From: a virus
Reading direction: 5' to 3' (one strand)
DNA length: 64,000 nucleotides
IMG/VR virus record: IMGVR_UViG_3300042389_001478
Span: 128,498 to 192,497 of that record
A program made the position numbers and the translations under genes. The notes under the pieces are model-generated. The model was not told the DNA's origin and ran no database searches. It worked only from the letters and a program-made list of their open reading frames with translations. Of this stretch, positions 47,143 through 57,224 are shown one piece after another. The first letter of the stretch is position 1, and the number at the start of each line of letters is the position of its first letter.

Positions 47143-47387
47143 CCATATTCATCAAACTTTTCTTTACACTCTTTATTAGCGTCATAATATCCAATATCAT
47201 AACCCTGCTCATGACCCATAGCATAAGCTGCCATCAACCACTTGATTATATCGTCAGTTTTTCCTTTTGCAACACAGTTTCTTATGTCACTTATAGCTCT
47301 TTCGTGTCTAACGCTATATCCTTCGATTTCGTTTATCCAGTGATCAAAAGTCATAGCATTTCTTTTCTGTGATGTTTCATGTGACAA
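47133..47387 (-). CDS. Hypothetical protein
   Basis: Operonic ORF; true start probably MTFDHW. Confidence 0.5.
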   Translation of the reverse strand: MSHETSQKRNAMTFDHWINEIEGYSVRHERAISDIRNCVAKGKTDDIIKWLMAAYAMGHEQGYDIGYYDANKECKEKFDEYGWI

Positions 47388-47821
47388 TTAGCACAAAGTA
47401 GTTCGCACTTTTTAATTTCTGATAAAAGTGTTTTCCAAGCTCTGTGCCAACTTTGACATAAGGTAAATTTTTTGTTCTTGGGGTTTTTATGATGAAAGGT
47501 CAAAACATCTGGGTCTTTAATCCCACAATGTTTACATTTTCCGCCTAAATAATCTATTGATTTGATCCTTTGATCATTACGTCTTTTGAATGTTCTACAC
47601 GTTGAACATACATTATTTTTTGTCCATCTAAATTCTCTTCCACATTCTGTACAGTGTTTTTTGCTATTTTTATCCCTTTGTGGCAAATGTAGTCTTTTAG
47701 TATTCTTCATACCGAAAGGAGAACACTCTAAACAATATTGTCTTTTATTTATAATCCTTTCTATTCCATCTATTACAACACGAATCTTAAACTCTTTATT
47801 GCATTTTAAACATTTTTTCAT
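47351..47821 (-). CDS. Free-standing HNH endonuclease next to the intron-containing tRNA
   Basis: Several CxxC zinc motifs; LGGKCKHCG...LTFHH...C.LLCANCH..HH. Confidence 0.85.
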   Translation of the reverse strand: MKKCLKCNKEFKIRVVIDGIERIINKRQYCLECSPFGMKNTKRLHLPQRDKNSKKHCTECGREFRWTKNNVCSTCRTFKRRNDQRIKSIDYLGGKCKHCGIKDPDVLTFHHKNPKNKKFTLCQSWHRAWKTLLSEIKKCELLCANCHMKHHRKEML

Positions 47822-47852
47822 ATCTATCTCCCATAGTATGTAGTCTAACTTA

Positions 47853-47860
47853 CATACACC
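47853..47860 (-). promoter_or_regulatory. GGTGTATG variant upstream of the tRNA-adjacent HNH gene
   Basis: Intergenic variant. Confidence 0.5.
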
Positions 47861-47899
47861 AAGATAGATATTTTGTCTGCTTTTTACACCACATTAAAG

Positions 47900-48179
47900 T
47901 GGCCCAGGTCGGACTCGAACCGACACTTGACGGATTTTCGTACCACTATAGTTTTCACTACCTTTACAGTTTGTGGTCTGGACTATCTCTTTACCATTAC
48001 TATTTCTAGTTTTAGGTATCGCCTGTTTAGTCTCTACACCTTTCTATTTCTAGACTTGGCTCGGGATTGGCATTTTAAAGCGTTCCCCGAATTTAAGCGA
48101 TTCTACTTTACAGATTTCTCCATAAGCACTCAATTTTAACGAAAAAAGTCCGCTACCTCTGCCTTTGGGTTACTGGGCC
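47900..48179 (-). tRNA. trnL: tRNA-Leu(UAA), split by a group I intron, short variable loop, CCA not encoded
   Basis: Exon 1 48179-48146 plus exon 2 47938-47900 give GGCCCAG-TA-ACCCAAAGGCAGAGGT-A-GCGGA-CTTAAAA-TCCGT-CAAGT-GTCGG-TTCGAGT-CCGAC-CTGGGCC-A (73 nt). Confidence 0.93.
47939..48145 (-). mobile_element. Group I self-splicing intron (IC3-type, 207 nt, no ORF)
   Basis: Follows exon U, ends in G; P AAATTCGGGGAA, Q AATCCCGAGC, R GTGTAGAGACT, S AAGAGATAGTCC; P1 ACUU/GAGU, P3 ATCGCTT/AGGCGAT, GAAA-capped P2, P6, P8 and P9. Confidence 0.93.
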
Positions 48180-48182
48180 ATT

Positions 48183-48269
48183 TACTTCCAAGCTACATAT
48201 CATAACGATTAGTTAGATGGTTGACTATGTTGTCTCTACTAATTTTTATGAGGGATGTAGTTGGAAGCA
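48183..48269 (-). ncRNA. Long rod-like hairpin immediately 5' of tRNA-Leu
   Basis: Nested stems TGCTTCCAA/TTGGAAGTA, CTACAT/ATGTAG, TCATAA/TTATGA, ATTAGT/ACTAAT, AGA/TCT, GAC/GTC. Confidence 0.5.
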
Positions 48270-48287: not shown

Positions 48288-48578
48288 TCACCCGTTAGAA
48301 TGAGCGGCCTTTAGACGGCGAACAGTCTCAGCCATAGCCTCGACATTATCCACAGTCTTAATGGGTTTGGCGCGTTCCATCTCAGGGAGATCAAGACCCT
48401 TCTTAGCCAGAGCAGCCTTTGCACGGGCATAACGAGCCTGTGTACTGGCAACCTTCTGGCCTGTCTTGGTAGCAATTTCAGCATAAGTCTTGCTGGAATA
48501 AACTGCCTCAAGGAACTGCTCATCACTGCAACGAACACGACTCTGCTTCTCAGTAGTAGTAACTTCAGCCATAATCAA
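48288..48578 (-). CDS. Small basic HTH-like DNA-binding protein
   Basis: TYAEIATKTGQK helix pattern; GGAGG SD; consensus promoter upstream. Confidence 0.6.
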   Translation of the reverse strand: MIMAEVTTTEKQSRVRCSDEQFLEAVYSSKTYAEIATKTGQKVASTQARYARAKAALAKKGLDLPEMERAKPIKTVDNVEAMAETVRRLKAAHSNG

Positions 48579-52369: not shown

Positions 52370-53392
52370 TCAATTGCTCTTATTTTTTACTTCCCTTACA
52401 TATTTCATTAATGGGTTTTCTTGTTTTGGTATTGTGGTCTTATGATTTTTTGTCCATACTGGCAATTTGCCAAACGGATTTACCCTTTTTCTAGGTTTCT
52501 GTTTTTGGTATTCTTGTTGGTGAAGAATCTGAACAATTTCTTCCTGTTCTATTTGTTTTTTCTTTCGATATTCTTCGTCTCTGCGTTGTCTTTTTTGTTC
52601 CTCTGTGTCATTATTTTTTCTTGATTCTTTAATGAAATATGGATGTTCAGCAATAGTTTTTTTTAGCTTATCACTTGCTTCAGGATGATTAAACAGTAAT
52701 TCTATTAGCGGTCTATGATTATCTAAATATCTCCTAATATTTTTTTTGCTTTTTCTACTGTATTTGCGAACCGTATTGGTAATAAAATCTTTCCTGTTTT
52801 CATCAGTAGCAGGAGCAAGAGTTTTGTATTGCTTATTTCTTTTACGTTTATGTGTCTTGATATAAGAATCAATATCATCTCTAAGAGATTTAATTTCGGG
52901 TTTTGGTTGTTCTTTTTGTTTTTCTATTGTTCCTTTATCTGATAAAACAACAGGCTTTTTCTTATATTTTTTCTTGCGATTATTTTTTGGCTCTAGTATT
53001 TGAGATCTACTATAACCAATATCGCTATTAAATTTTTCAGCCCAAATTTGCCATTCGTCTAAAGTATTTTTGCTATGCTCACCAAATAGTTTATTCAACA
53101 AGCCTTTCTTTTCAGAAACTCTTTTATCTTGTTCAACAAAATTATGACATGGTTCACATAACGTAATTAATTCATGCTGATCTCCTTGACCTAGCATGAT
53201 AATTTTTGTGTAATCAATATGATGAACCATTTTAGATGGAGAGCCACAAACTTGACAACATCTACCGTCTCGTTCTAAAACTAGTTGCCTTATATTCCAC
53301 CAAAGTCTAGACTTTATATATGCGTCATAACTTCTAAATCCTAGCTCTTTCCATGCTGGTGGCATAATTCTATATATCTCTTTCTTCTCCAT
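52370..53392 (-). CDS. HNH endonuclease with a long basic C-terminal region (start revised to MEKKE)
   Basis: RD..CQVCG...VHH.DY...LITLCEPCH. Confidence 0.75.
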   Translation of the reverse strand: MEKKEIYRIMPPAWKELGFRSYDAYIKSRLWWNIRQLVLERDGRCCQVCGSPSKMVHHIDYTKIIMLGQGDQHELITLCEPCHNFVEQDKRVSEKKGLLNKLFGEHSKNTLDEWQIWAEKFNSDIGYSRSQILEPKNNRKKKYKKKPVVLSDKGTIEKQKEQPKPEIKSLRDDIDSYIKTHKRKRNKQYKTLAPATDENRKDFITNTVRKYSRKSKKNIRRYLDNHRPLIELLFNHPEASDKLKKTIAEHPYFIKESRKNNDTEEQKRQRRDEEYRKKKQIEQEEIVQILHQQEYQKQKPRKRVNPFGKLPVWTKNHKTTIPKQENPLMKYVREVKNKSN

Positions 53393-54671
53393 GAAGAATC
53401 TTAAAAGTGGGGAAGCGAAGACTAAGCCCACCCTTCTCATTTTCTGTCTCTTGAAAATATTGTACAGTTATTTGCTTTCCAAGAATCTTCTTAGGATTCT
53501 TATAAAACTCCTGCCTTTGTTCAATACTAAAGCCAGACCCTACTCTTACCGTATGACCCTTATGTTGAATCATGACACAACTCAACATAGTCTCCTCACA
53601 TTCTGCACCATCCTTAACATAACGAAATGGCCCCATCTCTGTGTCCAAAACTTCGTATTCGTCATCTGAGAACGCTTTATACTTCAACAAGTCTTTGGAT
53701 CGCTTGCCTTTATATGGAGCGTCAGATCGAAGCATAAGCCCCTCCCACCCATTCTGACTAGATTCCTTAATCATTTCTTGAAAGTGGGTTTCATCCTTAA
53801 CCAAAGATTGTTCCAACAGTGTCAAGCAAGGACATTCATTCTTTCTCATAATCTCTGTAAGATTCTTGAGTCTGATACTAAATGGTCGATTCTGTTCACC
53901 CTTCTGACTATAAAACTCATCATGAGTAATCATATCGAAAATCTTATAGGAAGGATTAGGAATAGTATGATCCTTCTTGCGAAGTTCCTTCATTACTCCT
54001 TGAAAATCCTCGTTACCATCTTCATCAACCAAACAAAGCTCTCCATCAAGAACTACATTAGTAAGACCCAAAGCTTTAATACCATCGCTAACAACGTCAA
54101 GAGTATCAAAGATTTTTCCCGTGCGGGAATAGAAGGTAGTATTGCCAGTAGCATCAACAATACCAATACATCTAGCACCGTCGATCTTCCTGCTAACATA
54201 CCATCCATCCTTCCAGTCTACGATTTTAGGAACATACTTGTCCGCTAGAGCAACACTAAATGTTGGGATATGATCTGGAATAGCCTTATTAATCAGCTTA
54301 TCTCCAGCACGGGTTTTCAAATCCTTGTCAATGATGCAGTGAACGAGTTCTTCGTATTCTCTTTGGTTGTCAATAAAGCTATTAACTGCTCCAATGGCAT
54401 CATGACCTGTAATTTCTCTGTTCTTCAAAGCATCCAATAGGTCAAATATAGACTTGTATACTTTACCACGCAGATGACTTTTCTTTTTAAGATTATCACT
54501 AGTCACATTATACTGCCAAAGAGGATGATAAGTATAGAGCAGAATCTTCTTAAGAAAATTCGCACCACTGTCATTAGAGGAAGTATAATCCTCAATAATG
54601 CCAACCTTATCAAGTGTACTACTGGTTGCTTTCAGATCACGAACAAAACCATTAAGATGCTCAAACGACAT
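53370..54671 (-). CDS. lig: ATP-dependent DNA ligase (start revised to MSFEHL)
   Basis: KIDGAR, LDGEL, FDMI, EGLMLR, LLKYK, VGSGF, LRFP; SD CAGGAG. Confidence 0.95.
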   Translation of the reverse strand: MSFEHLNGFVRDLKATSSTLDKVGIIEDYTSSNDSGANFLKKILLYTYHPLWQYNVTSDNLKKKSHLRGKVYKSIFDLLDALKNREITGHDAIGAVNSFIDNQREYEELVHCIIDKDLKTRAGDKLINKAIPDHIPTFSVALADKYVPKIVDWKDGWYVSRKIDGARCIGIVDATGNTTFYSRTGKIFDTLDVVSDGIKALGLTNVVLDGELCLVDEDGNEDFQGVMKELRKKDHTIPNPSYKIFDMITHDEFYSQKGEQNRPFSIRLKNLTEIMRKNECPCLTLLEQSLVKDETHFQEMIKESSQNGWEGLMLRSDAPYKGKRSKDLLKYKAFSDDEYEVLDTEMGPFRYVKDGAECEETMLSCVMIQHKGHTVRVGSGFSIEQRQEFYKNPKKILGKQITVQYFQETENEKGGLSLRFPTFKILHGEERDI

Positions 54672-54696
54672 TTTTATTTTCTCCTGTGTTATCCCA

Positions 54697-54725
54697 ATTC
54701 TACCATGCGATAGTCCGTTTGTCAA
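54697..54725 (-). promoter_or_regulatory. sigma70-type promoter of the ligase gene
   Basis: TTGACA-N17(CTATCG)-TAGAAT. Confidence 0.88.
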
Positions 54726-56575: not shown

Positions 56576-56583
56576 AATATAAG

Positions 56584-56936
56584 TGGACGATTGGGGAATC
56601 GAACCCCGTCCAGTGTAAATGCCTATATAAACTTCTACATTGTTAGTTACTTGTTATCACACAAATAACAAAGCTATCAGAATTATCTGAGTCAGATTGA
56701 GTACAATCATCATTCCCATTTATGTCTGGTAGAACTACCATATCCGATTATCGGAGTCATCATGATTTGGTAATAAGGCTCATGCCGCCCCACTCATTAC
56801 CTAATTAATTAGGCAGCGAGAGCGAGAGTTGAAACTTCGCCAATTAACATTTTAAATCGACTTTTATACTGGCCCGTCGATCAACCAGTCAATGCAATTT
56901 ATATTTCTTTTTACCTGTCGATACCAGGAATCGCCC
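56584..56936 (-). ncRNA. ssrA: tmRNA; tag (A)GEVSTLALAA at 56841-56809
   Basis: 5' GGGCGAT pairs with 3' ATCGTCC-A including G3-U70; TCGACAGG after the D-like loop; T arm GGGGTTCGATTCCCC; tag ends LALAA-TAA followed by CCTAATTAATTAGG hairpin. Confidence 0.95.
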
Positions 56937-57144: not shown

Positions 57145-57224
57145 TACTCCTGCTTGGAATCGAACCAAGTCCCCTTTCGGATTACCTTATAAGAGTAACT
57201 GCCGGGAACCACCGGCACAGGAGC
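57145..57224 (-). tRNA. trnI: Atypical tRNA-Ile(UAU)
   Basis: GCTCCTG/CAGGAGT-A acceptor; TGCCGG/CCGGCA D arm; TTACT-CTTATAA-GGTAA anticodon arm; CCGAAAGG variable hairpin; CTTGG-TTCGATT-CCAAG T arm; consensus promoter 9 nt upstream. Confidence 0.85.

Follow-up and report, generated by a model that had tools for sequence, protein, structure and literature searches.

A tRNA-Leu(UAA) gene of an uncultured lake phage is split by a 207-nt insert which, judged by its sequence and its covarying secondary structure, is a group I intron belonging to the classical family of bacterial tRNA introns (IC3, type Leu.3Ug). We consider it probable, from the arrangement of this locus and of its relatives, that the intron is kept by collaborative homing with a free-standing HNH endonuclease whose gene starts 79 nt past the 3' end of the tRNA. 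Within the catalogued IC3 tRNA-Leu(UAA) family the intron is an ordinary case, and the proposed mechanism is already established for introns of protein genes. Absent from the literature that we found were the abundance of such introns in phage tRNA genes and their tight association with HNH genes, located either beside or inside the intron.

The gene resides in an IMG/VR virus record of 192,497 bp (CheckV completeness 100%). The window, i.e. the whole stretch of DNA analyzed here, is the final 64 kb (64,000 nt) of this record. The record contains genes typical of phages, such as those for RIIA, ribonucleotide reductase, DNA ligase and several HNH endonucleases. The features of the locus are given in Table 1.

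Table 1. Features of the split tRNA-Leu(UAA) locus and of the adjacent HNH gene (positions in the window).
Feature	Position	Strand	Basis or remark
tRNA-Leu(UAA) 5' exon, 34 nt	48146..48179	-	ARAGORN on joined exons; exon mapping over 113 homologous genes. Acceptor strand, 3-bp D arm, 5' anticodon stem, C32 U33 U34
tRNA-Leu(UAA) 3' exon, 39 nt	47900..47938	-	ARAGORN on joined exons; exon mapping over 113 homologous genes. A35 A36 A37 A38, 3' anticodon stem, 5-nt variable loop, T arm, acceptor strand, A73
Group I intron, 207 nt, ORF-less, UUUU start, G end	47939..48145	-	Rfam RF00028; structure scored on 79 relatives
P1	48151-48146/48131-48126	-	U48146.G48131 wobble
P2	48125-48108	-	
P3	48100-48095/48024-48019	-	
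P4	48090-48085/48066-48061	-	
P5	48081-48070	-	
P6/P6a	48060-48038	-	
P7	48034-48029/47984-47980	-	Pseudoknot with P3
P8	48018-47992	-	
P9	47977-47942	-	
Terminal G of intron	47939	-	
Promoter-like site TAGTCA-17-TATGAT, ~20 nt upstream of tRNA	48199..48227	-	Consensus scan, 9/12 matches; weak
Free-standing HNH endonuclease gene, 156 aa	47351..47821	-	phrog_2255, E 5.9e-31
Predicted hairpin, 11-bp outer and 7-bp inner stem	47820..47871	-	RNAfold, -19.4 kcal/mol
556-bp block carrying the HNH gene	47356..47911		blastn of syntenic regions

An earlier note on this DNA had proposed a minimal group I intron at 48145-47939, preceded by an exon U and ending in G, and these boundaries proved to be exact. 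The Rfam covariance model RF00028 matched the intron over the full model length (48155-47957; 70.8 bits, E 5.9e-16, gathering score 50), as the note's assignment to group I would predict, and this was the sole RF00028 match in the whole 192-kb genome. Relatives of the intron scored 68.6 bits (L038), 56.9 bits (L011) and, with laxer speed filters, 56.6 bits (L001). The absence of an internal ORF, also claimed in the note, held in our scan of the sense strand, where no ORF of at least 40 aa was found. In size the intron, with its 207 nt, is close to the Azoarcus tRNA-Ile intron (205 nt).

The elements P1 to P9, which the earlier note had described as readable, were arranged in a curated structure with P7 as a pseudoknot, and this structure was scored on 79 distinct phage homologs among the matches listed. 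A fold made by RNAalifold, where the invariant exon GACU was paired with the 3' strand of P7 and neither P1 nor P7 was formed, was rejected in favor of the curated structure. In the 79 homologs 95.5% of the cells were in standard pairs, compared to 27-42% when the partners were slid by 1-3 columns; the covariation score was 0.452, compared to 0.04-0.09 for the slid controls. The observed pairing and covariation values were reached in none of 500 shuffles. Compensatory (both-sided) changes were found in 32 of the 55 pairs, and P2, P3, P5, P6a, P8 and P9 all had such changes; P3 was 100% paired, with all six pairs covarying. P7 and P6 are invariant in the family and, therefore, uninformative with respect to covariation. 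The window intron has 54 of the 55 family-consensus pairs intact. The one pair lost lies in the outer part of P1, where G faces G (G.G); 54 of the 79 homologs leave this position unpaired. We also observed that a P1 pair covaries with the anticodon-stem base of the exon (GC 33, AU 19, GU 7), which indicates that the guide sequence follows its host tRNA.

As read from the helix map, the intron has P2, a short P5, a compact P9 and no extra domains. GAAA loops are present on the tips of P2 and P9, and P8 has a CCUAAA...UAUGG-like motif; these elements may resemble the tetraloop-receptor contacts of Azoarcus. We infer that the intron would be self-splicing.

Comparison of homologs places the intron between U34 and A35 of the anticodon. 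In 79 of 79 homologs the U that precedes the 5' splice site is paired with a G of P1, the last intron base is G in all of them, and the intron-less gene in the related phage L190 reads CTTAAAA; the junction was assigned on these grounds. In its intron mode ARAGORN sets the boundary one nucleotide further left, with a call of Phe(gaa). This tRNA-Phe(GAA) junction was rejected, since the intron would end in C, against the U.G and terminal-G rule and against the intron-less homologs with CTTAAAA.

The junction is identical, GGACTT/...G/AAAATCC, in seven cyanobacterial trnL(UAA) genes from a sample of 41 genomes, and the type Leu.3Ug was defined by Williams (2020) as CUU/a...g/AAAA, being marked IC3 in the database cited there. 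Thus, the site is the one named in the earlier note, that of the cyanobacterial and plastid trnL(UAA) IC3 intron. The same 41-genome sample contained group I introns in tRNA-Asn(GUU), tRNA-Arg(CCU) and tRNA-Met/fMet(CAU) as well (loci L535, L539 and L540; ARAGORN labels).

The cyanobacterial introns share with the phage intron the host gene, the insertion point, a P1 with U.G and the lack of an ORF. However, they are longer (237-302 nt compared to 207 nt) and reside in tRNAs with a long variable arm, while the phage copy is located in a class I tRNA and has an HNH gene beside it. Moreover, they have the core variant GTGCAGAGACT, not GTGTAGAGACT, and are without the strings AAATTCGG and CCGAGCCAAG. 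On the other hand, Leu(UAA) and Arg(CCU) introns of Alphaproteobacteria, Acidobacteriota and Bacteroidota have conserved core strings in common with the phage intron, although they form clades largely apart from the phage copies. By its letters, the core of the window intron is nearer to the proteobacterial sublineage, despite the junction being identical to the cyanobacterial one.

The joined exons form a 73-nt cloverleaf with the loop C-U-U-A-A-A-A, anticodon UAA and discriminator A73; ARAGORN identifies it as tRNA-Leu(taa). The textbook bacterial tRNA-Leu is of class II and has a long variable arm. The variable loop in the window has 5 nt, as in class I, so of the clean cloverleaf described in the earlier note the fold and its UAA loop were restored, with a variable loop unlike that of the textbook tRNA-Leu. 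Among the matches listed we mapped 113 intron-bearing phage genes. A 5-nt variable loop was present in 28 of them (window included) and an arm of 13-17 nt in 85, while A73 and the anticodon UAA were present in all 113. Class I and class II phage tRNA genes can have identical acceptor stems.

A pattern search for intron-less class I genes in viral and bacterial collections produced at least 119 viral and at least 116 bacterial matches, all of which were tRNA(UAA) genes of 73-78 nt. The matches listed span at least 116 bacterial species (bacterial loci L243-L362). Mb-sized contigs of Mycobacterium, Nocardia, Rhodococcus, Corynebacterium, Nanopelagicaceae, Rubrobacteraceae and Planctomycetota account for many of them; among the matches listed the class I form was seen in some Bacteroidota and Bacillota too. 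In a 5.6-Mb Mycobacterium genome, just one of the 49 YTTAARA sites was located inside a tRNA, namely in the class I gene (G002:C8:3537580-3537820, L364). As the sole tRNA(UAA) gene found in this genome, it is the tRNA-Leu(UAA) gene of that organism, and the leucine identity that we assign to the class I form is deduced from this one genome. The Mycobacterium gene and the joined exons of the phage have an identical stretch of 40 nt, which starts with the last base ahead of the anticodon stem and runs to the end of the T arm.

Therefore, the class I form is a normal, little-discussed type of tRNA-Leu that is common in Actinomycetota, and the loop in the window is no anomaly. A non-leucine or chimeric tRNA arising from ectopic homing was ruled out, given the wide distribution of class I and its being the sole tRNA(UAA) gene in the Mycobacterium genome. 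A search of the open-access literature for class I tRNA-Leu of Actinobacteria found no paper. The likeness of the phage tRNA to those of Actinomycetota is at most suggestive of the host, given that other phyla have class I tRNA-Leu(UAA) too. By RIIA, the nearest cultured phages are T4-like phages of enterobacteria, with an identity of only 32-37%, and a megablast search with 20 kb of the phage had no match.

UUA is the commonest leucine codon of the phage (34.7% of Leu codons, 27.6 per 1000 codons), and AUA makes up 35% of its Ile codons. These are the codons of the two tRNAs of the phage, so codon supply may be the simplest rationale for carrying the tRNA-Leu. With default settings ARAGORN detected one of the two tRNAs, Ile-UAU, and missed the split tRNA-Leu. 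The tRNA-Ile(UAU) gene (80 nt, 57145-57224, minus strand), whose product would decode AUA, looks odd in several respects as drawn by ARAGORN: its first pair is a G1.U72 wobble, the D loop is small, the anticodon stem is extended and the variable region is long. At 56581-56936 (minus strand) a phage tmRNA was matched over its full length by Rfam RF00023 (77.1 bits, gathering score 47), with no ARAGORN call.

The leader of the tRNA-Leu is 93% identical to that of the relative L011. The promoter-like site came from a consensus scan whose total number of matches was equal to the chance expectation. Immediately upstream of the tRNA-Leu, at 48288-48578 (minus strand), a 96-aa protein is encoded that weakly resembles sigma-70 region 4 (E 2.4e-4, short of the Pfam cut-off). 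This protein keeps its place upstream of the tRNA-Leu in dozens of related contigs (63-91% identity), in any intron or HNH state.

The HNH gene was identified by the PHROGs match, by tblastn matches to annotated HNH endonucleases of Bacillus phages (36-38% identity) and by the HH...N...CxxCH motif in the alignment; a Pfam search of the protein had no match at E<0.01. DNA homology to the syntenic regions of close relatives ends at 47912 and restarts at 47355, and in L011, L049 and L032 the block between these positions is replaced by ~40 bp. Therefore, the HNH-bearing block is an insertion in the window phage. The predicted hairpin takes in the Shine-Dalgarno sequence and the first two start-codon bases of the HNH gene. 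Another HNH-like ORF in the window, at 52370-53440 (minus strand; 356 aa, PHROG HNH E 6.6e-14), overlaps the start of the DNA ligase gene (53370-54725) and is probably another free-standing homing endonuclease gene.

Homologs of the window HNH were found beside other split genes. In L038 a homolog with 60% identity is located 72 nt downstream of an intron-bearing class II tRNA-Leu, and in L121 a homolog is also downstream of an intron-bearing tRNA-Leu. In at least 14 loci the tRNA is followed, after 35-52 nt, by a gene of a second HNH family (~155 aa), which is 40-58% identical to HNHs encoded inside the 650-756-nt introns of other loci. The window HNH is of another lineage than this intron-resident family (E 0.005 only).

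For the two families taken together, an HNH gene was present within 900 nt downstream in 25 of 92 intron-bearing loci compared to 2 of 111 intron-less loci (p 6e-8, among the matches listed). With class I only and each distinct tRNA counted once, the numbers were 11 of 17 and 2 of 100, respectively (p 1e-9, among the matches listed); the statistics of both comparisons are inflated by the relatedness of contigs, and the intron-less set came from a narrower search pattern, with the direction of the association being clear. HNH genes beside split tRNA genes, and rarely beside whole ones, would be expected if the endonuclease had the uninterrupted gene as its target and could reside only by an interrupted one.

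The relatives show that intron and HNH gene are both variably present. The contigs L011, L019 and L049 have the same gene order as the window, with flanking proteins 83-96% identical and an intron-bearing class I tRNA, and have no HNH gene. In L032 this slot contains a class II tRNA. In L124 and L190 the slot is occupied by intron-less genes, so the intron-minus alleles that the earlier note had suggested looking for in related phages do exist. The L190 allele is equal to the joined exons of L011, L019 and L049, and its flanks are ~89% identical. An exact-match search of IMG/VR for an intron-less allele with the window's own exons found none; intron-less alleles were found for relatives only. 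L044 and L053 have the same tRNA as L038 and no HNH gene downstream. Since close relatives have the intron without any HNH gene, the intron can persist without the HNH.

The 300 nt upstream in the window are closest to L011 (88%). The window intron, among the matches listed, is closest to L040 (88.6%), followed by L038 (83%), with L011 at 75.5%. Such a mosaic, with the upstream region resembling L011 and the intron resembling L040, is what gene conversion would leave. Three states were seen in the intron-bearing relatives: intron only, intron with a flanking HNH gene, and HNH gene inside the intron. The arrangement is, in sum, that of collaborative homing, with an ORF-less intron and an adjacent endonuclease gene, each present in some relatives and absent from others.

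In the reading that we consider probable, the intron would fold after transcription, and an exogenous G would attack after U48146, held in the U.G wobble of P1. The freed 5' exon would then attack after the terminal G47939, with release of a 73-nt tRNA of the short-variable-loop type that would decode UUA. In co-infecting relatives the HNH endonuclease would cut the intron-less tRNA-Leu(UAA) genes in or close to the site of intron insertion. The intron and the HNH gene would then spread jointly as the break is repaired from the intron-bearing copy. The phage's own gene would be shielded by the intron, which splits the target. The predicted hairpin over the ribosome-binding site of the HNH gene may hold its expression low.

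Free-standing homing endonucleases that target neighboring sequence are well known from the seg and mob genes of T4; SegB, encoded within the T4 tRNA cluster, is a GIY-YIG enzyme with no intron involved, unlike the window HNH. It is conceivable, though in our judgment rather unlikely, that the window HNH is an ordinary enzyme of this kind with no tie to the intron, which would then persist by clean splicing only. Such independence would agree with the difference between the window HNH lineage and the intron-resident one, with the same or related introns having no HNH gene in L011, L019, L049, L044 and L053, with the scatter of similar HNHs over many unrelated phages, and with the second HNH gene adjoining the ligase gene in the same window. 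However, two separate HNH lineages recur beside intron-bearing tRNA-Leu(UAA) genes, almost never beside intron-less ones, and one lineage was found both inside and beside the intron; both observations argue for a tie. An additional role of the HNH and the intron as a weapon, with the enzyme cutting the intron-less tRNA-Leu(UAA) genes of the host and of rival phages while the intron-shielded phage copy supplies the tRNA, appears improbable to us. The 40-nt identity across the insertion site between the phage exons and the chromosomal gene of Mycobacterium would fit such a role, as would the frequency of intron-less class I genes in bacteria and phages. Against it speak the distant RIIA relationship to cultured phages and the low GC content of the phage (36.5%).

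It is very improbable that splicing serves as a regulatory gate, as the earlier note had suggested, with the supply of mature tRNA-Leu(UAA) set by the conditions of ribozyme folding. The tRNA decodes the commonest leucine codon of the phage, so its supply could matter, which is no direct support. Related phages with intron-less alleles and the same gene order indicate that the intron is dispensable, and the pattern of its presence and absence fits a selfish element. We give hardly any credence to a decayed relic in a tRNA pseudogene, or to tRNA-Phe(GAA) as the true product of a junction shifted by 1 nt. The ARAGORN call in intron mode favors the latter, as does the short variable loop, a feature typical of tRNA-Phe. 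Yet the intact consensus pairs are accompanied by intact invariant positions of the core, all of them, and the shifted junction fails at both the intron end and the intron-less homologs, as described above.

Beyond collaborative homing, one may speculate, with considerable doubt, that phage tRNA-Leu(UAA) loci are a widespread arena in which the intron and at least two HNH lineages act as a module of interference competition or host takeover and not as a purely selfish passenger. If so, the enzyme would destroy the intron-less genes of competitors and possibly of the host, the gene with the 40-nt identity being that of Mycobacterium. The four coexisting states (no intron, intron only, intron with flanking HNH, HNH inside) would then record a stepwise birth of mobile introns.

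With a search pattern composed of the intron core and a Leu-type 3' exon, the intron family was found in at least 119 IMG/VR contigs. Together with the window locus, these contigs make the classical tRNA-Leu intron common in phages. The same core pattern matched at least 120 cellular genomes, including, among the matches listed, 108 with class II Leu(UAA) and seven Bartonella with Arg(CCU). In cells, the combination of a class I tRNA and the intron was present among the matches listed only in two Sphaerochaeta MAGs (L527 and L528; 205 and 207 nt). A joint FastTree tree of the phage and bacterial introns listed had 5 changes of label compared to ~57 with shuffled labels, the two groups forming largely separate clades. 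Given so few changes, exchange between phages and cells looks rare, and the suggestion of the earlier note that phages ferry tRNA introns between bacterial lineages is left with weak support from 3-5 switches. Within phages, the intron tree had ~12 switches from tRNA genes of one class (I or II) to those of the other.

Hausner et al. (2014; Hausner, Hafez, Edgell; PMC3984707) stated that all phage introns observed by then were in protein-coding genes, despite the many phage tRNA genes; the earlier note had placed the well-known phage group I introns in such genes too. The cases of collaborative homing described there are the psbA intron of cyanophage S-PM2 with F-CphI and the DNA polymerase intron of a T7-like phage with an HNH endonuclease. 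The intron-only, intron-plus-HNH and HNH-inside-intron states of the relatives match the pathway to mobile introns proposed in that paper. Differently from those cases, the host gene here is a tRNA gene and not a protein gene, and two unrelated HNH lineages occupy one slot. According to PMC13096335, T4 SegB is likewise a phage homing endonuclease whose gene lies beside tRNA genes and which promotes inheritance of the region.

Devoto et al. (2019; PMC6784885) described 'enigmatic' introns in tRNAs of Lak megaphages and noted that phage tRNA introns were previously unreported. Those inserts, also located in phage tRNA genes, are short and were not classified as group I, whereas the window intron is a full ribozyme. 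The catalogue of bacterial tRNA group I introns by Williams (2020) leaves phages unmentioned, and the huge-phage paper does not contain the word intron. In the open-access literature we found no published phage tRNA group I intron, nor any report later than the 2014 and 2019 statements.

The family has been overlooked because standard tRNA finders do not seek group I introns. With split tRNAs missed, phage tRNA inventories and analyses of codon supply were undercounted. The loci also provide many natural intermediates for the old question of how a mobile intron arises from the union of an ORF-less ribozyme with an endonuclease that was free-standing: in some phages an HNH gene flanks the intron, and in others a gene of the same family resides within it.

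The intron family is also present, unannotated, in two huge phages from GenBank. In the 735-kb phage LR756501.1 (L001) a 205-nt ORF-less intron is located in a class II tRNA-Leu(UAA) gene at 1460-1750. In the 595-kb phage LR756511.1 (L002) a tRNA-Leu(UAA) gene is split at ~800-1650 by an intron of ~700 nt with a 189-aa HNH ORF. A related unannotated group I intron, 73% identical over ~150 nt to the tRNA-Leu family, splits the capsid gene of Pelagibacter phage HTVC120P (L003, MH598807.1) at ~1462-1652, where the capsid is annotated as two CDS (gp29 and gp30).
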